Below, piece after piece: positions 21,831-63,099 of a DNA stretch of 64,000 nt (position 1 is the stretch's first letter; each line of letters begins with the position of its first letter). Under the pieces are notes generated by a model. That model saw only the letters and a program-made list of their open reading frames with translations, was not told the DNA's origin and did not search any database. The DNA comes from Isurus oxyrinchus (Eukaryota): contig JANJGN010001343.1 of NCBI GenBank assembly GCA_026770705.1, forward strand, positions 1-64,000, given 5' to 3'. The position numbers and the translations under genes were made by a program.

Positions 21831-24574
21831 TTACTGAGACTAGCTTCGCATTCCAGAAGTCACATCCAGTCGTGGACAATTAAACTGGAGGAGGAGGCTC
21901 CACAAATATCCCCATCCTCAATGATGGAGGAGTCCAGCACGCCAGTGCAAAAGACAAGACTGAAGCATGCGCAACAAAATGTATCAATCAATTAAATTTA
22001 TTGATTAATCAAATTGAAATTCCTCCAGCTGCCGTGGTGGGATTTGAACCCGTGCCTTCAAAGCATTCACCTGGGCCTCTGGATCACTGGCCTAGTGCCA
22101 TTCCCATTGTGCGACTGTCTGCTATCATCATGGCTCTTTCACATCGATGTGGAAGTCCTGATAACAGAAGCATTGGACGAGGTACAGAAAGGTGACAAAT
22201 CAGGAGCTCCATGGCTCAATATGAACGGATAATAAAGATAAATGAACATAAACCTTCCAGTCGCTAATTAGGGAGTCACTGTGGAGCCCATGAGTCCCTC
22301 ACAGCGCTATTGCAACCTTCTGGATCCCCAGTAGGGGACTCGGGATGCAGCTGTGTCTTCCTCATCATTTGGAAAAGCCGGAATTGTTCGGGTGTCCCTT
22401 CAAACAGGCCGAAGATGCAGTGGGTGATGTCTCCCACAGGCCCTGGGAGACCTCCCCTGCCAATTTGTTTTGTAGCTTATTCTTCAACTGCGACATTGGA
22501 TCAGCTTGAAAAAGGGTGAGGCTGAGGCAATACCACCAGGTAAGCGTCTATCCCCTCCCACTTCACCCCCCCACCCCCGTAACCATCACAGTCCCTCCCA
22601 TCGTGCTGGAGGAGCATAATGTGCACATTCCCCTCCTTCCAATCAGTCTCCTCCCTTCCTCTCTAATCCTTGATCTTATTGTGTTGGGGGTTGACATGCC
22701 AGTCCTCCTCCCTAGACTGTCTGATGTTGACATCCCAATGCCCCATGTAGACCTGACCTCTCTCCAACTAGAGGCCCATTGTACTGTGACTTACAGAGAC
22801 CACCGGCCCCCCTCGATTCCCACGCCCACCCCTACTCTCTATATTACCTGCTCCCCACTGACAGGCTGCAGATGCCTCCCCTGACTGGGATTGTGCCACC
22901 TGCGGCCTAGTATCAAGCCACCCACCCCCAGGATGGACGTGTGTGAGGGACTGACCACGTCCTGCACACCATGCTGGGCACCACCAACCCAGGACTGCCA
23001 GGCTGTCCCCACCACACTGGACTGGGCCTAGAATAGGCGTGCCAAGCACAGCTCTCTAAATCGTGGCGCAGACCCACAGCACTCGCAATGTTTTGTGGCC
23101 CGAATCCTTGCTGAGGAACTGCCCAGCACTAAAATCAAAAAAACTGCAAATGCTGGAAATCCAAAACAGAAACAGAAATACCTGGAAAAACTCAGCAGGT
23201 CTGGCAGCATCGGCGGAGAAGAACTGAGGTAGTGCGGCACTGTCGGAGATTCAGTACTGAGGGAGTGCTGCACTGTCGGAGGGTCTGAGCTGAGGGAGTG
23301 CTGCACTGTCGGAGGCTCTGAACTGAGGGAGTGCTGCACTGTCGGAGGGTTTGAACTGAGGGAGAGCTGCACTGTCGGAGGGTTTGAACTGAGGGAGTGC
23401 TGCACTGTCGGATGGTTTGAACTGAGAGAGTGCTGCACTGTCGGAGGTTCTGAACTGAGGGAGTGCTGCACTGTCTGAGGGTTTGAACTGAGGGAGTGCT
23501 GCACTGTCGGATGGTTTGAACTGAGGAAGTGCTGCACTGTCGGAGGGTTTGAACTGAGGGAGTGCTGCACTGTCGGAGGGTTTGAACTGAGGGAGTGCTG
23601 CACTGTCGGATGGTTTGAACTGAGAGAGTGCTGCACTGTCGGAGGTTCTGAACTGAGGGAGTGCTGCACTGTCTGAGGGTTTGAACTGAGGGAGTGCTGC
23701 ACAGTCGGAGGGTCTGAACTGAGGGAGTGCTGCACTGTCGGAGGGTTTGAACTGAGGGAGTGCTGCATTGTCGGAGGGTCTGATCTGAAGGAGTGCTGCA
23801 CTGTAGGAGGGTCTGAACTGAGGGAGTGCTGCGCTGTTGGAGGGTCAGTACTGAGGGAGTGCTGCGCTGTCTAAAGAACATTGTACAAATTGCACAAAAT
23901 TGCATCTGATGCCTGTGTCTCATGCTAACATGAAGTTCATGCACACAACAGGAATATTTCTCGCTGTTTCTCTGCAGCAAGACAGCTTTGATATCACACC
24001 AGCCACTGGCAAATGTGTGCAGCTACAATGTGACATGTTTACATTGGAAATTTCTATTATAAAGATGGACAGAGGAATTCATCTGATTGGAAAACGTGAC
24101 AACATGAAGTAATGTCTTTGAGCCAAGAATTTTGCAGCAAAATAAGAATTTTAATCTTTAAATATCTACAGAACAGGCTGAGCATTTTAATCACTTGAGT
24201 TAATCAATGTAATTTTATTCATAAGCCAAATGCTTCTTACAATCTATCGCAGCATGAAAAAGGTGCAGCATTCAGAAAGCACATTCCAATCAGAGAACAG
24301 AGTTTAGCAACGTCACATTTCTGTTCATTCCTATTCGACCATGTTGGCTGCACACAGCCAGACAATGCTGTGGTTATGATGTGTCCACACAGCAGGACTG
24401 GGGAGCACCAGGTATAAGGAAAGGTTTCAGCTTGCTGAGGAGAAGAAGGAGAATCTCTCGTTCCAGGTTTCTCTCCGTACATTAAGAAGCAGGCATGCCG
24501 ATGTTTCATTGCACTCTGTCTGCTGATGGGAGTCCGCTTGGAAATTGCTGTTTGTGCTGATGGAAAGAATAAGC

Positions 24575-25170: not shown

Positions 25171-25296
25171 TGCTGGAATGCCTCTCTGATACGAAGGTGA
25201 TTCTAACCAGGACACTGACCAATTTCATTACAACTTAACCCAACATCACACGTTATTTGTCCGCACTGACTGACCAGATTGTTGCTGTACAAAGCT

Positions 25297-25436
25297 TCAA
25301 ACAGTCTGTCGACTTCCTTTCACTGTTTGTCTCTCCCAGACACAGACTCCAGCAATAGTGATAACCACAGCCACAAGGAATATCACAGCTCGTATTCCCA
25401 GGATCAGGATCACGTGCAGAATCTCTCCTCCACTGT
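25297..25436 (-). CDS. Siglec-like gene B: terminal TM exon with intramembrane Arg and short tail
   Basis: Acceptor ttctctag, phase 1. (Y)SGGEILHVILILGIRAVIFLVAVVITIAGVCVWERQTVKGSRQTV*. This frame is not in the ORF track. Confidence 0.85.
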
Positions 25437-27141
25437 CTAGAGAACACACAGAAAGAAATCATCACTGACTCTCCGCTTTCAATCTCTCACTCTGGCTGAA
25501 CAATCAAGCTTCATATCACTACAACATTTGCTGTAATATTGACCCATCCACTGGGATTCAATGTGGAATGAATGTTTTCATTGTAAACACTCTAAGAGTG
25601 GACAATCGGAACTTTCCCCTTAGCGTGGAACATTGGTGAGAATGGATCATTGTGCTGTTGGACTCCCTGTCCAATGTTTCTCTCCATCGCTGTGTACAGG
25701 ATTGTGCTGTAGAAAATTCTGGAAACGTTTAGTGCAGCGTGGAAATCCATCTCGGACGCGTGTGCGAATCGGGCAGGATCGAGATGGACTCCCTCACGGA
25801 CTTACTCACCCCGCTTAATAAACAGTTCCAATCTTTACCCAGAGAGAGGGGAGAATGTGGAACTCGCTCCCACAGGGAGTGGTTGAGGTGAACAGTATCG
25901 ATGTATTTAAGGGGCAGGAGGGTCGGTAACCAGAGGGACACAGATTGACGAACCGGAGGGGGAGATGAGGAGAATTTGTTTTGATAGAGCGAGTTGTTGT
26001 GATCTGGAAGGTGCTGCCTGAAAGGGCGGTGGAAGCAGATTCAATAGGAACTTTCAAAAGGGAAATTGGATTAACACTTGAAGGAGGAAGATGGGGGCAA
26101 AGTGGAGTGGTGGTTAGTGGATCTGATTGGATAGAACATTGAAAGACCTGGCACAGGCACAATGGGCTGAATGGCCTCCTCCTGTGCTGTATCATTCTCC
26201 GCTTCTATGATCTCTCCCCCAGTTAGTAACCGCTCCAGATCCCTCTTGAAGGCAACAGAGAGACAGCAACCACCACACCCACTGACAGCACATTCCCGAG
26301 GATCCCTACTCTCTGGGAAAAGATGAACTCCCCAACATCCAGCCTATTCCTGCTTCCTGGAGAGTGTAAACCCTTCCCAGAGCGCGGATGAATCTTTCAA
26401 TAAACTGTATTATCAAATCTACCATTTGATATATAAGTTAATTTCGATGAACTTACAGCATGTGTTGCAAATTGTGAAGTGAAGTTGGCTGAAAAGCTGG
26501 GAGGTGCAAGGTTAAGCACCACAGTGCCATCACTGGTGGGAGGATGTAAAGACAGTGTGACGTTTACATATGTTGCCCCCATTATAAACAGGGTCATTGG
26601 ACATGATGGCAAAACTGAACACTGGAAAGGTGAGAAAATGAAGTAAGCTCTTCACTAACAGGAAATCCCTTCCTAAACTTCCTTATCTCTCCCTTTCTCT
26701 CAGATACACAAAAAATTTGTCACAGGGCATTATAAGGAGGAGTTAGGACAGGCAAGAGTTACGGATTAGGAAGCTTCTTAAAGGAGGAGAGAGATACACG
26801 GAGAGGTGGGGAGTATCAGTTGGAATCTTTGTGCATGTGAGTTTCTGGAATAGACTTTGTAATTTGGATATTCTTCGATAAATATGAATGGGAACACATA
26901 TCCCAGAATCCAGGAGAACTCTCCAGTGCAGTACTGAGGGAGTTCAGGTAACTCACAAGGGAGTGTGTACTACTGAGTTAGTGTGTGAGTGTGTCTTTCT
27001 GTGTGCTCATGAGTGTGGGATTGTGTGTGTGCATGCACTTTGGGTCTGTACATTTGTGAGTGCTTGTGTGTGTGTGCGTGGGAGAGCATCTGAATATTTG
27101 TGTTTGGAGATGAGAGAAATATTAAAGTCTGTGTAACTCAC

Positions 27142-27423
27142 ATTCCACAGTGATGGTTATGAACCCCTCCACTGCTCCATGTTCATTCTCTGCCACACAC
27201 TGATATTCTCCAGTGTCCCTGGATGTAACGTGAGGAATCACCAACCACAGCTCATTGTTGGAACTTGTTCTGTTCATTGGGACATTAAGATGTCGCCACA
27301 TCAGGTTAGAAGCTGGGAAGCTCTCGACAGAGCAGATTATCACTGCAGAATTCCCCTCAATTATATTGATCGATGAAGCGTTAATCATATCTGGAGAAGT
27401 AATTGAGAGATTCCGTGGTGCGT
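27142..27423 (-). CDS. Siglec-like gene B: second C2/I-set Ig exon
   Basis: 282 nt, phase 1-1, AG/GT. YAPRNLSI..EGNSAVIICSVESFP..W..DTGEYQCVAENEHG. Confidence 0.93.
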
Positions 27424-30479: not shown

Positions 30480-30776
30480 ATAGCACAGTCAGTACGAGGG
30501 TCCGCTTCGATGAAACAGATGGATATCTCACTCTGCAGCTGAGAGTGTGTCCGTGGTGTTTGAGTGATGGGATCAGGGTCAGAACAGAAGTATAGGTCAG
30601 AGTGACACCATGCTGAGTTACAGTGTTTGAGACTGATCCAGGTACGTCAGTGGGAGTGTCCCAGGTTAAGACAGGTGCTGCTGTTCCATTGCACGTTGTG
30701 TTGAAGGTGCAGCTTACATCCACACGCTTTCCTGCAATAATTTCAGCAGGGAATATCGTGGGTTTATCTGTGAAAT
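30480..30776 (-). CDS. Siglec-like gene B: first C2-set Ig exon
   Basis: 297 nt, phase 1-1. KP.I..VSCTFNTTCNG..PVLTW..SVLTLIPS.KHHGHTLSCRVRYP, including the extra Cys for the Siglec inter-domain bond. Confidence 0.93.
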
Positions 30777-32091: not shown

Positions 32092-32460
32092 CAGAAACAT
32101 GAAGCCGGGTTACAGGGTAATAGTTATGGCTCGGACCATTGTCAAATTCTATTCTGAAAAAATAAGGTCCTGCATCTTCCCGTCTGATGTTGTTTATAAT
32201 CAGGGAACAGTCGCCATCTTTCAGGTCTCCAGACAGCCGGGTCCGATGGTGGAACCGTGGTAACTCGTGACTGTGATCCTTGGAGTGAAAGGCAATGGGA
32301 GCCCAGGGAATCTGTTCCTCATTATTAAACCAGACTCCACCTCGTTGTTGGTTTTCCAGACACGATGGATAATTGTAATGACATGGAATCTGTACACACG
32401 AACCTTCCTGCGCTGTCACCTCTCGTGGAGTTTCACCTTTCCACTCTTGTGACAGTCCAA
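32092..32460 (-). CDS. Siglec-like gene B: V-set exon with essential Arg
   Basis: 369 nt, phase 1-1. EW..AQEGSCVQIPCHY..W..RTRLSGDLKDGDCSLIINNIRREDAGPYFFRIE. Confidence 0.94.
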
Positions 32461-33324: not shown

Positions 33325-33364
33325 CTTGGAGAAGTGACAGGAGGCAGTAATATTTCCCAATTAT
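33325..33364 (-). pseudogene. Gene B leader exon with the start codon mutated ATG>ATA
   Basis: ggacaATAattgggaaatattactgc..caag|gt versus ggacaATGatcggg (49152) and ggacaATGgtcggg (41322); in-frame TAA upstream in the same exon. Confidence 0.8.
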
Positions 33365-33814
33365 TGTCCACTCCCAGATATTCCTTTAGCTTCTGACTCT
33401 CAAACTCTGAAAGAGAAAGGAGTTAATGAGACCTCACCTCTTGTCCGACAGCTCTCGAGAGATCAGAACTGCTTTTAGACAATGTCCTCTGAGACTAATT
33501 TGGTTCTCTGTGGGATGACAGGTGCTCTGCAGAGAGTTAAAAAGCTTTAAAAAAATAAATCAATGAAGGACTTGCATTTCTATAGCACCTTTCACCACCT
33601 CAGGATGTCCCAAAGCTCATGTCCCTGCACTTCCATCATCCCTTGAGCTAGAAAGATGTTCTGTACAACAGACTTGAGCCTCACACCCAGATCTCAATAA
33701 TCAGTAGAAATCTTTCAAAGGCATCAATCATTGGAATCTGTCTTTATAAAGTCACAACATCAACAAAGGACGGTGTTGGTGGTGGAAGTGAATTCCAATC
33801 GTTCCGTTACTTAC

Positions 33815-40730: not shown

Positions 40731-40871
40731 CACTTCCTCATTTTGTCTCACAGTGACACATCAACCCTTTCTAATTAAATACACAGAGGGAGCAGCACAG
40801 GAAGAGGTCATTCAGCCCAAGCAGAGCGTGTGGGCAGTTCCTCCCCAGGCGAGCAGTCGGACAGGTCCTGG
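40731..40871 (+). promoter_or_regulatory. Gene C promoter / non-coding first exon with PU.1-type site
   Basis: CACTTCCTCATTTT (reverse complement AAAATGAGGAAGTG) at 40731-40744; donor gg|gtaagt at 40871. Confidence 0.65.
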
Positions 40872-45743: not shown

Positions 45744-45883
45744 ACAGTGGAGGAGAGATTCTGCACGTGATCCTGATCCTGGGAATACGAGCTGTGATAT
45801 TCCTTGTGGCTGTGGTTATCACTATCGCTGGAGTCTGTGTCTGGGAGAGACAAACAGTGAAAGGAAGTCGACAGCCTGTTTGA
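45744..45883 (+). pseudogene. Gene C TM exon with intramembrane Arg (intact frame)
   Basis: SGGEILHVILILGIRAVIFLVAVVITIAGVCVWERQTVKGSRQPV*; inverted twin of 25297-25436. Confidence 0.85.
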
Positions 45884-46009
45884 AGCTTTGTACAGCAACA
45901 ATCTGGTCAGTCAGTGCGGACAAATAACGTGTGATGTTGTGTTAAGTTGTAATGAAACTGGTCAGTGTCCTGGTTAGAATCACCTTCCTATCAGAGAGGC
46001 ATTCCAGCA

Positions 46010-48560: not shown

Positions 48561-48701
48561 CACTTCCTCATTTTGTCTCACAGTGACACATCCACCCTTT
48601 CTAATTAAACACACAGAGGGAGCAGCACAGGAAGAGGTCATTCAGCCCAAGCAGAGCGTGTGGGCAGTTCCTCCCCAGGCGAGCAGTCGGACAGGTCCTG
48701 G
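48561..48701 (+). promoter_or_regulatory. Gene D promoter / non-coding first exon with PU.1-type site
   Basis: CACTTCCTCATTTT at 48561; donor at 48701. Confidence 0.65.
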
Positions 48702-49151: not shown

Positions 49152-49191
49152 ATGATCGGGAAATATTACTGCCTCCTGTCACTTCTCGAAG
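49152..49191 (+). CDS. Siglec-like gene D: leader exon (MIGKYYCLLSLLE)
   Basis: Acceptor at 49111, ATG at 49152, phase-1 donor gaag|gt. Confidence 0.8.
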
Positions 49192-54472: not shown

Positions 54473-54693
54473 TTGGATTGTCACAAGAGTGGAAAGGTGA
54501 TACTCCACGAGAGGTGACAGCGCAGGAAGGTTTGTGTGTACAGATTCCATGTCATTACAGTTATCCATCAGATTTGGTAAAGAAACCACATGTCGGAATC
54601 TGGAAAATGAGAAGGTACATATGGAACAAATGGTCTAAATGGTCTATAGCCTTTCACTCCAAGGGTCACAGTCACGAGTTACCACGGTGTTAA
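54473..54693 (+). pseudogene. Extra truncated Siglec V exon (D') in gene D intron
   Basis: Intact acceptor ctccccag. VGLSQEWKG..CVQIPCHY..SHELPR, then homology is lost at ~54688 and TAA follows. Confidence 0.88.
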
Positions 54694-57777: not shown

Positions 57778-58143
57778 TTGGACTGTCACAAGAGTGGAAA
57801 GGTGACACTCCACGAGAGGTGACAGCGCAGGAAGATTCCTGTGTACAGATTCCATGTCATTACAGTTATCCATCGTGTCTGGAAAACCAACCACGAGTTG
57901 GAGTCTGGTTTAATAATGAGGAACGGAGAACATTGTCTATAGCCTTTCACTCCAAGGATCACAGTCACGAGTTACCACAGTTCCACCATCGGACCCGGCT
58001 GTCTGGAGACCTGAAAGATGGCGACTGTTCTCTGATTATAAACAACATCAGACGGGAAGATGCAGGACCTTATTTTTTCAGAATAGAATTTGACAATGCT
58101 CCGAGCCATAACGTTTCCCCTGTAACCCAGCTTCACGTTTCTG
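57778..58143 (+). CDS. Siglec-like gene D: V-set exon with essential Arg
   Basis: 366 nt, phase 1-1, open. CVQIPC, GDCSL, DAGPYFFRIE. Confidence 0.94.
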
Positions 58144-58881
58144 GTAAGTGCTGTGTTATAATTACTCAACAATTCACATTCAACTCTCAATGGGAAATAA
58201 CACAAACTGTGACGTTTACACATTAACACAAAACACAGCTTATTATAACACACTGTCTGATTCTCGATATCCTGGTGATAGCTTCCAGTTCAGTCCTAAA
58301 GCAACCTCTAATACTCACTTTAATATCAATGATTAAATATATTGACTGTGTCCATCAATGTTATCAGGTTATCCACTCCCATCGATCTCTCTAATCCTAA
58401 TCTCTAATGTCTCGAAGCCTGACATATCGACAGAAGAAAGATTCACATTTCTATAGCACCTTTCACCACCTCAGAACGTACCAAATCACTTCACAGCCAA
58501 TGAGCTGATTCCTGAATTGTAGTTACTGTTGTAATGTGAGAAACACAGCAGCCAATTTGCGCACAGCAAGCTCCCTCAAATTGCAAAGTAATAAATGGCC
58601 CAGATCGCTGAGTGAATGATGGGGTAGTGCACTCCAAACTCTGGTCTGCTCCTTCACCCTCACCCACTATTATCAGTTCAAGTGTCTCGGAGTGAACGTG
58701 TGTTAAGCTGAGAGACAGAAACATCAAAGTGTCAAAGCAGGAAATGCTCTCCTGATCATTGTAACCTCTCAGTTCTGATATCATCCTTGTAAAAGTGCTT
58801 TCTCTTGTGGGACTGTGGTTTCTATTTGAACTGATGCTTCACGTTATATTTCTCTAAAAGGATCCATTCTCTGTGTGTTAG

Positions 58882-59178
58882 ATTTCACAGATAAACCCAC
58901 GATATTCCCTGCTGAAATTATTGCAGGAAAGCGTGTGGATGTAAGCTGCACCTTCAACACAACGTGCAATGGAACAGCAGCACCTGTCTTAACCTGGGAC
59001 ACTCCCACTGACGTACCTGGATCAGTCTCAAACACTGTAACTCAGCATGGTGTCACTCTGACCTATACTTCTGTTCTGACCCTGATCCCATCACTCAAAC
59101 ACCACGGACACACTCTCAGCTGCAGAGTGAGATATCCATCTGTTTCATCGGAGCGGACCCTCGTACTAACTGTGCAAG
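58882..59178 (+). CDS. Gene D first C2 exon
   Basis: 297 nt, phase 1-1, open. Confidence 0.93.
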
Positions 59179-59922
59179 GTAAGAACGGACACCCTTCCAT
59201 CTACATTAGCTAGAAAGCTCTACATAGTACACTGCAAGATCCCACAACTGCATTGTGTTTAGCAACAAATCAATAGTCTTTAACTGATACAAATTCGCCT
59301 CTGACACTGCAGCAGTCCCTAAATACTGAATCTCCAACACTGCAGCACTCCCTCAGTTCTGAACCTTCGATAGTGCAGCACTCCCTCAGTACTGACTCTT
59401 CAACAGTGCAGTGCTCCCTCAGTACTGGCCCTCCCACACTGCAGCACCCCCCGAGTTCTGACCCTCCAACAGTGCAGCACCCCCTCTGGACTGACCATCA
59501 GACAGTGCAGCTGTCCCTATGTACTGAACCTCTGACAGTACAGCACTCCCTCAGTACTGACTCTCTGACAGTGCAGCACTCCCTCAGTACTTACCCACCA
59601 ACAGTACAGCACTCCCTCAGTAATGACCCTCTGACAGTGCCGCACTCCCTCAGCACTGAACCTCTGACGGTGCAGTGCTCCCTCAGTACTGACTCTCTGA
59701 CAGTGCAGCACTCCCTCAGTACTGACTCTCTGACAGTGCAACACTCCCTCAGTACTGACCCTCTGACAGTGCAGCACTCCCTCAGTACTGAACTGAAGTC
59801 TCTGCCTGGATTACGGGCTTTGTGAAAATGAACCTACATTGAGATCATATCTTTCACATTCTAAGTGTCTTTCAAAGTGCTTCACAGTCAGTGTAACTTA
59901 ATTGATGTTTATTTGTTTATAG

Positions 59923-60204
59923 ATGCACCACAGAATCTCTCAATTACTTCTCTTGATATGATTAACGCTTCATCGATCAATATAATTGAGGGGAATTCTG
60001 CAGTGATAATCTGCTCTGTCGAGAGCTTCCCAGCTTCTAACCTGACGTGGCGACATCTTAATGTCCCAATGAACAGAACAAGTTCCAACAATGAGCTGTG
60101 GTTGGTGATTCCTCACGTTACATCCAGGGACACTGGAGACTATCAGTGTGTGGCAGAGAATGAACATGGAGCAGTGGAGGGATTCATAAACATCACTGTG
60201 GAAC
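59923..60204 (+). CDS. Gene D second C2/I-set exon
   Basis: 282 nt, phase 1-1, open. DTGDYQCVAENEHG. Confidence 0.93.
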
Positions 60205-60229
60205 GTGAGTTACACAGAATTGAACGTTC

Positions 60230-61270
60230 TCTTATTATTAGCTCATGGGATGTGAGTATTGTTGACAAGGCCAGAAATTATTGCCCATCTGTAACTGCCC
60301 CTTGAGAAGGTGGTGGTGAGCTGCCTTCTTTAACCACTGCAGTCCATGTGGTGTAGGTACACCCACAGTGCTGTTAGGGAGGGAGTTCCAGGATTTTGAC
60401 CCAGAGACGGTGAAGGAACGGCCGATATAGTTCCAAGTCCCAGGGCAGACCACCACCTCAAGTTCGCCTCCAAGTCACACACCTCACTGACTTGGAACTG
60501 TCTTGGTGGAAGAGGTTAAGGGTTTGGAAGGTGCTGTCGAAGGAGCCTTGGTGAGTTGCTGCAGCGCATCTTGTACATGGTGCACACTGCTGCCATTGTG
60601 TGCCAGTGGTGGAGGGTATGAATGTTTATGCTGGTGGCTGGGCTGTCGATCAAACAAGCTGCTCCTGGATGGTGTCGAGCTTCTTGAGTGTTGTTGGAGC
60701 TGCACTCATCCAGCCAAGTGGAGATTATTCCATCACACTCCTGACTTGTGCCTTGTCCGATGGTGGACAGGCTTTGGGGGGTCAGGAGTTGAATTACTCA
60801 CTGCAGAGTTCCCAGCCTCTTACCCGCTCTTGTAGCCACATTATTTCCTGTTGCTGGGTTGTTGCCAGGGCCAATAGCCTTTGCTGTATCCAGTATCATC
60901 AGCTGATTCCTGATGTCACGTGGAGTCAATCGAATTGTCTGAAAGCTGACATCTGTGATGCTGGGACCCTCTGGAAGAGGCCGAGATGGATCATCCACTC
61001 AGCACTTCTGGCTGAACATGGTTGCCAATGCTTCAGCCTTGTCGTTTGCACTGATGTGCTGAGCTCCCCCATCATTAAGGATGGGGATATTTGTGGAACA
61101 TCCTCCTCCTGTTAGATCCTTATTGTCCATCACCATTCATGACTGGATGTGGCAGGACTGCAGAGCTTAGATCTGACCCGTTGGTTGTGGGATCGCTTTG
61201 CTCTGTCTATAGCATGTTGTTTCCGCTGTTTGGTGTGTATGTAGTCCTGTGTGTCACCTCAGCAGCTTGG
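60230..61270 (-). mobile_element. Fragmented LINE (CR1/L2 group)
   Basis: WNSLPNSTVGVPTPHGLQ..KKAAHHHLLKG 3' end; IRLTPRDI..LDTAKAIGP. Confidence 0.8.
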
Positions 61271-61468
61271 CACCTCTGTTATATGTGAATCCTCCTTATA
61301 GAAACCTGCATGTACATGGATATTATCAATAAATATTACATAGATAAATGTTATTTGTATAGACCTTTCATGCATAGACAATATCACTTCACAAGTTCAG
61401 AATTACTACATGTACATAGGGAACCATTCTCAAACTGTACCGGAGTCATTCATTGGCTGATTTTACAG

Positions 61469-61565
61469 GGCGAGATTCCAATGAATGGAAAGCAGGATTG
61501 CTTGGAGCTGGAATCTGTTTGAGTGTTGGACTGAGTGGATTCTTCATCTTCAAGTGTGTGAGAAA
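61469..61565 (+). CDS. Gene D TM exon, uncharged core, spliced onward
   Basis: Acceptor attttacag, phase 1. (R)RDSNEWKAGLLGAGICLSVGLSGFFIFKCVR, then the canonical aa|gtaagt donor (phase 2). Confidence 0.78.
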
Positions 61566-62214
61566 GTAAGTGTGAAGGTTTAATTGGTTGTTTTTGAAAA
61601 TGTTTTCTTCAAACTTCTCTCCTTATAGAAAGAACTTGCATTTCTATAGCACCTTTTACAATCCAAAACCCTTCGCAGTCCCTGAAGAGTTTTGATGTTC
61701 ACCTAGAGTTTAACATCTCATCCAACACTCACTGTTTCACAACTCAGTCCTGTAACTGGCAGTGTTGACCCGGACCATAAAATAGCTTCTGACCTCCTGA
61801 GTTTGTGAATGCTGCTATACAAATAAAAACCTTTCTTTTGTTAGTGAATGCAATCTCTTTCCATTTTCCATGATTCATTCACTCTCTTATCGCCACTAAT
61901 GCACGCCTTCTCATTCTCTCTCTCATTCACTCTCTCTCCTATCTCCACTAATGCTCTCCTTCTCATTCTCTCTCTCGTCCTCTTACACGTTGTTCAGTAT
62001 CTCACATTTTTAAGGAGTGCTGAGCAACATCTGCTCCTTCAGAAGATCCACCTCAACACCTGGAGTGAGCAGTGAAATGAAACTCGCTCAACGACTGCTC
62101 AGCTTTACACAGGAATCACGTCATAGAGTCAGGACACAAAGGGTTAACTGTTTGCTTACAACACAACACTAAGGCCCTACATTTCAATGAAAGTGTTTTC
62201 ATAATTGTTCCCCA

Positions 62215-62516
62215 ATTCCTCATTTGACTCACAGTGACACATCCACCCTTTCTCATTAAATACACAGAGGGAGCAGCACAGGAAGAGGTCATTCAGCCCA
62301 AGCAGAGCGTGTGGGCAGTTCCTCCCCAGGCGAGCAGTCGGACAGGTCCTGGGTAAGTAACGGAACGATTGGAATTCACTTCCACCACCAACACCGTCCT
62401 TTGTTGATGTTGTGACTTTATAAAGACAGATTCCAATGATTGATGCCTTTGAAAGATTTCTACTGATTATTGAGATCTGGGTGTGAGGCTCAAGTCTGTT
62501 GTACAGAACATCTTTC
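62215..62516 (+). promoter_or_regulatory. Fourth, truncated copy of the promoter / first-exon module
   Basis: Matches 48561-48865; donor at 62352; breaks off into a CR1 fragment before any leader exon. Confidence 0.7.
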
Positions 62517-62863
62517 TGGTTAAATTGTGCAGACAGGTTACACACAGTCTACGATTATATTCCCTCGGGTCTAGAAGATTAAGGAGGGATCTAACTGAGG
62601 GGTTCAAACTGATTAAACACTCGATAGGGTCGATAGAGAGAAGCTATTCCCTCGGGTGGGGGTGGGTGGTGGGTGTCGGGTGGAGTCCAGAACAAGGGGG
62701 CTGGAACTTCAGATTGGAGCCAGGCCGTTCAGGGGTGATGTCAGGAAGCACTTCTTCACACAAAGGGGAGTGGAAATCTGGAACTCTCTCCCCAATAATC
62801 AAACCCAACACCGAATACACATCATGTTGATTGTCACTCTGTCCATTTCCATCTCTATTACAG

Positions 62864-62944
62864 AAGAGAGGAAAGGGGAAAGCAGGAATCAAATCGAACC
62901 ATCGTGTTGATGAACATCGAAGTCCTGTTTATGAAAACTGTGAG
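62864..62944 (+). CDS. Tyr-motif cytoplasmic exon (KRGKGKAGIKSNHRVDEHRSPVYENCE), 3' end replaced by a LINE fragment
   Basis: Acceptor ctctattacag and KSN..Y.NCE align with the 37987 exon; homology stops at ~62944. Confidence 0.68.
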
Positions 62945-63099
62945 CGTGGTTGGGCTTTGAGGAATCAGGTGAGTCACACGCCACAGGATCCCCAGTCTCT
63001 CAGCTGCTCCAGTAGCCTGGTTATTGATATGGCTGCTCCAGTCCTGTATCTGCAATGTTTTATACAGTCACTCCCAAACCCAACCAAACTCACACCCAA

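Follow-up and report, generated by a model that had tools for sequence, protein, structure and literature searches.

The closest described counterparts of the shark receptors reported here are the paired Siglecs of primates (Siglec-5/14 and Siglec-11/16), which carry a V-set domain with an F-strand Arg together with C2 domains. An activating form with a basic transmembrane (TM) residue and no ITIM stands beside an inhibitory form with an ITIM and a TxYxxI motif, and the V domains are common to both. Human Siglec-14 pairs with DAP12 by means of an Arg that sits in the N-terminal half of the helix. Its binding of DAP12 is described in PMC4042635; the basic residue of DAP12-coupled Siglecs is given as 'lysine or arginine' in PMC6890642 and PMC9404585. 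A second set of receptors couples to FcRγ: FcαRI, GPVI, NKp46, LILRA and OSCAR, with XFL and SLAM-like receptors in Xenopus, are reported to have an NxxR motif in the TM, an upper-helix Arg, an acidic C-end and TM plus short tail in one exon, the same TM type lying under unrelated Ig families (PMC6557307, PMC2413239, PMC4536121). In Xenopus, according to these reports, one activating TM type is common to the LRC, FCRL and SLAM families. Finally, a macaque activating KIR is described that acquired its TM from KIR2DL4 by recombination, an Arg-bearing TM exon having been swapped in to give the activating form, and that binds FcRγ, not DAP12 (PMC8102735).

The shark family shares with the primate pairs each of the ectodomain, TM and motif features listed above, but differs from them in number (~200 activating-type exons against two genes), in the tandem V exons of many of its units and in a TM exon related to that of a SLAM-like gene, while the mammalian forms use DAP12. 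It resembles the NxxR-TM receptors in the placement of its Arg as counted from the cytoplasmic edge, its acidic C-end, its exon structure and the use of one TM type over unrelated Ig families, but has no Asn at −3. As in the macaque KIR, an Arg-bearing TM exon would make the activating form; there the exchange took place within one family, whereas that of the shark exon would cross families and chromosomes.

The window, that is, the whole stretch of 64,000 nucleotides that was analysed, contains one gene of this type on the minus strand (gene A) and a second copy of its TM exon in gene B:

24167..24556, minus strand, untranslated last exon of gene A, with AATAAA at 24219 and ATTAAA at 24191; a contig of run X5 joins it to the TM exon, and its 3' end is only the end of that contig
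25275..25436, minus strand, TM and short-tail exon of gene A, coding at 25436-25297, Arg codon CGA at 25392-25390, stop at 25299-25297, donor after 25275; contig pieces cover 25275-25438, with the joint 24556/25275
27142..27423, minus strand, second C2-type Ig exon of gene A, open, AG/GT, phase 1
30480..30776, minus strand, first C2-set Ig exon of gene A, open, AG/GT, phase 1, Pfam C2-set_2 (E 6e-9); joint 30776/32092 in 4/4 runs
32092..32460, minus strand, Siglec-type V-set exon of gene A with an F-strand Arg (YFFR), Pfam V-set and Ig_CD22; top PDB match Siglec-5 (E 3e-14), Arg aligned
33325..33406, minus strand, leader exon of gene A, with ATA at the start codon (33364-33362), no ATG anywhere in it and a stop in frame upstream; joint 32460/33325 in 3/4 runs
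45744..45905, plus strand, second TM exon copy, in gene B, 98.8% identical to the gene A copy; its end is inferred from the 162-nt length of that copy

Splice joints were taken from Logan contigs of six runs, which are presumed to be RNA and are not recorded as such; spliced joints alone were used, and the contigs cannot be pinned to one array copy, gene A included. An AG acceptor in phase 1 precedes 25436-25297, and the frame stays open through LGIRAVIF to the stop. The GT-AG intron from 25275 to 24556 is spanned by contigs of runs X1 and X5, which come from two studies (2/4 runs). The stop lies 22 nt upstream of this last splice junction, so the short tail is real: it runs 13 residues past the last Trp, contains no Tyr and has no in-frame tail exon downstream. 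A longer spliced tail for gene A was ruled out, because the stop precedes the donor. The exon does not appear in the stop-to-stop ORF list with its 80-aa minimum, as expected from its small size, and it gave zero matches in PDB and Pfam. The LGIRAVIF exon is the spliced TM exon of a shark CD33-like Siglec family.

Around the Arg, the apolar run spans 26 residues from His-8 to Trp+18, and the Arg falls inside all top-four Kyte-Doolittle windows (19, 21, 23 and 25 residues). Counted back from the cytoplasmic Trp, it is at position 5 of 23; in the best hydropathy windows (19-25 residues, starting at −7 or −6) it is at position 7-8. Upstream, the exons 32460-32092, 30776-30480 and 27423-27142 and the TM exon, joined by coordinate, form a single open V-C2-C2-TM frame, all in phase 1 with AG/GT borders. 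Among the contig joints listed, none links the second C2 exon to the TM exon; one X5 contig runs from the first C2 exon to the TM exon and on to the last exon, which corresponds to a V-C2-TM form. Among solved structures the V exon comes closest to Siglec-5, MAG, Siglec-8, Siglec-7 and CD33, with the F-strand Arg aligned, Siglec-5 (E 3e-14) and MAG (E 9e-14) scoring alike. Gene A has the build of a Siglec, with an N-terminal V-set domain bearing the essential F-strand Arg, then C2-set domains and a type I TM, and we infer that the shark CD33-like family would bind sialic acid. The initial annotation had proposed, from the letters of the TM exon, a TM Arg with a Tyr-free tail on a Siglec-type ectodomain. 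The acceptor, open frame, stop and tail bear out the first part, and the V-C2-C2 exons with their best PDB match and aligned Arg the second; its placing of the Arg in the TM's N-terminal portion agrees with the count from the cytoplasmic Trp but not with the hydropathy windows, and depends on where the helix starts.

The gene A leader has ATA where its paralogues have ATG. The same ATA leader occurs in 4/99 other array units and is thus not a one-off error. Judging by this start codon, translation of the gene A copy is improbable, though it might begin at a non-AUG codon or in an alternative first exon. The V exon of gene B holds a stop and a frameshift. A further gene on the plus strand (gene D, 57778-63058) has an open V exon, C2 exons at 58882-59178 and 59923-60204, an uncharged TM near 61469-61566 and a Tyr-bearing tail exon near 62864-63058; its nearest ATG leader is at 49152, with a truncated V exon at 54473 in between. 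The exon just upstream of each leader (33905-33816 on the minus strand; 40781-40870, 48611-48700 and 62260-62352 on the plus strand) is homologous to the first tail exon of gene D after its uncharged TM, and homologues of it are coding in the tails of several sharks' gene models; by homology it seems to serve as a 5' exon in some units and as a tail exon in others. A diverged V-set exon at 11745-12110 (plus strand), 28% identical to the gene A V exon, stands apart from the other genes and resembles the sialoadhesin-like N-terminus of protein P0034.

Across the genome, the TM exon has 218 matches to a 27-letter pattern with a free Arg codon (control 0), and CGA is the Arg codon in 213. Units were sampled from the first 100 of the 218 matches listed, at 10 kb each; one proved to be a SLAM-linked copy, which leaves 99. 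Leader, V, C2 and TM are all open in 10/99, while in another 26 V, C2 and TM are open and the leader lies beyond the 10-kb range. Three units have no open C2 and 60 are broken, and in most the second C2 exon is missing its 5' part. Of the 36 open units, 25 show two or three V exons that are open inside the range; together the open units have 67 open V exons, which comprise 56 distinct sequences and keep the essential Arg in 63 cases. Two to four tandem V exons precede one C2 in many array units (L035-L134), and V variation in the array is concentrated in a middle loop region, with pN/pS 0.50 over full 369-nt V exons (22 distinct).

For the inhibitory partners, a guessed ITIM DNA pattern gave 3 matches against 1 in the control, in unrelated places, and was dropped for a protein search. 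All 150 scored matches to the ITIM-tail exon (of 408 candidates) lie on the same contigs as the TM exon, two of them on the contig of the window, and both Tyr motifs are present in 2 of the 6 loci examined. This is a large paired-receptor array, in which ~200 activating-type exons are interleaved with at least 150 ITIM-tail exons, the latter counted by protein search and both counts possibly including allelic copies: 16/99 units have a neighbour at least 99.8% identical over 1.3 kb, on another contig in 9 of these, and FCER1G turns up on two small contigs. Inhibitory counterparts with similar ectodomains sit in the same cluster, as in other paired receptors. Among array copies of the TM exon there is no sign of purifying selection (pN 0.025, pS 0.010, 22 distinct sequences), so the 213/218 CGA codons mostly reflect recent duplication, and the constancy of the Arg within this genome was rejected as proof of selection.

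The Arg is there in every one of the 27 stored proteins carrying the flanking motif, which represent 8 further shark species (Carcharodon, two Scyliorhinus, Mustelus, two Chiloscyllium, Hemiscyllium and Rhincodon); 19 were reached through a V-domain search or cluster look-up and 8 through a TM profile that itself contains the Arg. In these protein sequences the Arg is kept across four shark orders' worth of data, having been read directly in three. The V-domain search gave 99 homologues, all from sharks and rays, 77 with a TM window, 8 of these of the Arg type. Among the other 69, the best TM window holds K/R in just one, so the TM Arg of gene A is more than chance, and 45 carry ITIM/ITSM-like motifs. 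In a tree of 33 V domains (3 incomplete rows skipped), Arg-type rows are scattered among uncharged-TM rows, and supported pairs combining the two types occur in catshark and bamboo sharks, the TM labels being those of gene models. Against 1.84 billion representatives, the TM profile had 9 matches (E<=0.001), all in galeomorph sharks; absence from squalomorphs and rays is weak here, since clusters hide members. A word-based search with the TM region returned 3 white-shark proteins only and missed known catshark relatives.

The same TM exon occurs outside the Siglecs. A diverged copy lies on a 118 Mb contig (G000 C21) behind the V and C2 exons of a SLAM-like gene, whose relatives are named SLAMF9-like and whose top PDB matches are SLAMF6 and CD2; its V exon holds a stop in this genome, and a neighbouring SLAM-like paralogue has an uncharged TM and Tyr motifs. 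SLAM-like genes stand in tandem at 89.405-89.458 Mb of this contig (L155-L158, L035): one whose TM is uncharged and which has Tyr motifs, another that bears the Arg TM and the V stop, and a third with a broken V. Elsewhere, at least 13 near-identical matches, 33-38% identical to the SLAM-like C2 exon, are spread over many small contigs (L145-L154), which suggests another expanded Ig family. SLAM-like proteins ending in this TM are found in Mustelus and S. torazame, and CD22-like and sialoadhesin-like proteins ending in it in Chiloscyllium, Hemiscyllium and Rhincodon. TM sequences are of low complexity and outside this genome the relatives come from predicted gene models, so that convergence or mis-annotation might be thought to account for the sharing. 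We consider this very improbable: the SLAM-linked and array copies are 77% identical across 92 nt of the exon, with identity still at 67% across 303 nt of the intron upstream (E 3e-13), the arrangement is repeated in Mustelus and Scyliorhinus proteins, and a Heterodontus SLAM-like gene model matches the exon in a shifted frame. The Arg TM exon is homologous to the TM exon of the SLAM-like gene, not to the Siglec inhibitory TM. Transfer by duplication of exon and intron together is the simplest reading of these similarities, and the TM exon likely moved between families in this way. It is probably a cassette independent of the NxxR exon, as no bony-vertebrate protein appears among the 9 TM-profile matches. 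The catshark versions (P0002, P0029, P0043, P0070, P0099) have a Glu-Asn-Leu near the beginning of the exon; compared with the Asn-Leu of NxxR TMs it is seven residues more distant from the Arg, and it may be coincidence or a remnant of common descent with them.

As for signalling, the conserved Arg of intact family members would dock with the two aspartates of an FcRγ or CD3ζ dimer, and this dimer would supply the activating signal missing from the short tail. We think such coupling of the shark Arg-TM Siglecs reasonably probable, the adaptor's identity and the activating function both being read from sequence. FCER1G is present on two small contigs; two FcRγ TM exons with Cys and Asp (L032, L033) have FcRγ as top PDB match, and a second zeta-family TM exon with Cys and Asp (L031) is read as CD3ζ. 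In shark FcRγ and CD3ζ alike the first basic residue comes 16 after the Asp, and counted from the cytoplasmic edge the receptor Arg sits 3 residues above the adaptor Asp. This matches the offset of 3 between the Arg of FcαRI (position 3) and the Asp of FcRγ (position 6) in PMC1440944, where a preference of FcRγ for Arg and of DAP12 for Lys in type I receptors is also reported. All TM rows have the Arg and no Lys in the helix, and the central Lys of DAP12 partners is absent. An acidic C-end residue and a TM and tail in one exon, reported for FcRγ-type TMs (PMC6557307, PMC2413239), are both present in the shark exon: the first charged residue downstream of the Arg is at +19 in 16/18 rows and is acidic (Glu). 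Gln or His at −5 in 5/18 rows suggests that the hydrophobic core starts near −4, and the conserved F+4, T+11 and G+14 point no more than 40 degrees away from the Arg face. Against FcRγ/CD3ζ, position 7-8 by hydropathy falls in the 7-12 range given for DAP12 partners (PMC1440944), the NxxR motif is absent, with Leu at −3 in 18/18 rows, and human Siglec-14 pairs its Arg with DAP12. The predicted complex of this TM with the shark FcRγ TM dimer scored 0.14 against a mark of 0.34, and the controls did not fold, so the score counts neither for nor against pairing; an ITAM family search of the genome found no match there or in its controls.

The same hydropathy windows and the missing NxxR would suit receptors that are activating but coupled to DAP12 (or DAP10), like primate Siglec-14, with a helix from about −7 and the Arg near mid-membrane. 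Activating mammalian Siglecs, as far as described in the cited literature, use DAP12 via Lys or Arg, and NKG2D is reported to pair a central Arg with DAP10 (PMC13107469). We nevertheless judge this unlikely, because 18 residues separate the Arg from the cytoplasmic-edge Trp and leave it high in the helix, the polar residues at −5 oppose so early a start, a Lys-to-Arg change is reported to cut KIR-DAP12 assembly to 15% (PMC1440944), and the homology to a SLAM-like TM exon means that the habits of mammalian Siglecs need not apply. A DAP12-like TM pattern had 3 matches in the genome against 1 in the control, none a convincing exon. The sole family-search match for DAP10 contains a stop and is not an adaptor. 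Loss of the Arg in orthologues, which the initial annotation named as refuting its reading, was not seen in the 27 related proteins. Its likening of the Arg to that of FcαRI, GPVI, NKp46 and LILRA, as opposed to DAP12-coupled Siglecs, fits the register from the cytoplasmic edge but not the missing NxxR, and since DAP12-coupled Siglecs can use Arg, the residue by itself does not decide against DAP12.

The Arg might also snorkel to the outer head-groups or serve retention or self-association, the receptors then being adaptor-free decoys or adhesion molecules. The Arg is perhaps just five or so residues inside the core, a large share of the array is broken, and the case for an adaptor is built on sequence. 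This reading is quite improbable in our view, given an Arg invariant over 8 species and three ectodomain types, and a short tail with ITIM-bearing partners, described as the standard paired-receptor pattern (PMC13358205, PMC2413239).

Taking FcRγ/CD3ζ coupling as the preferred reading, we tentatively propose, at somewhat less than even confidence for the whole, that galeomorph sharks evolved their own portable FcRγ/CD3ζ-docking TM exon, unrelated to the tetrapod NxxR exon, which moved among SLAM-like, CD22-like and CD33-like genes and, in the lineage of the present shark, seeded a multi-megabase array with ~200 activating units and no fewer than 150 inhibitory ones; these would be the first Siglecs to signal via FcRγ/CD3ζ. 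Shark proteins of this kind are present in NCBI under automatic Siglec names. Among titles and abstract openings of the shark Siglec and adaptor literature outside subscription journals, none concerned this array or exon, and supplements of genome papers could list the array.

What makes the case interesting is the family and the sharing of the exon, less so the start-less gene A copy itself. If the proposal is true, sharks would join Xenopus as a second example of a single activating TM exon in unrelated Ig families, and the rule on Arg position could be tested cleanly on a helix that lacks NxxR and is far from mammals, from which sharks are separated by ~450 million years. The paired Siglec arrays of sharks would far exceed the mammalian cluster in size, and a swappable exon, not a fixed link to DAP12, would determine which adaptor a Siglec uses.
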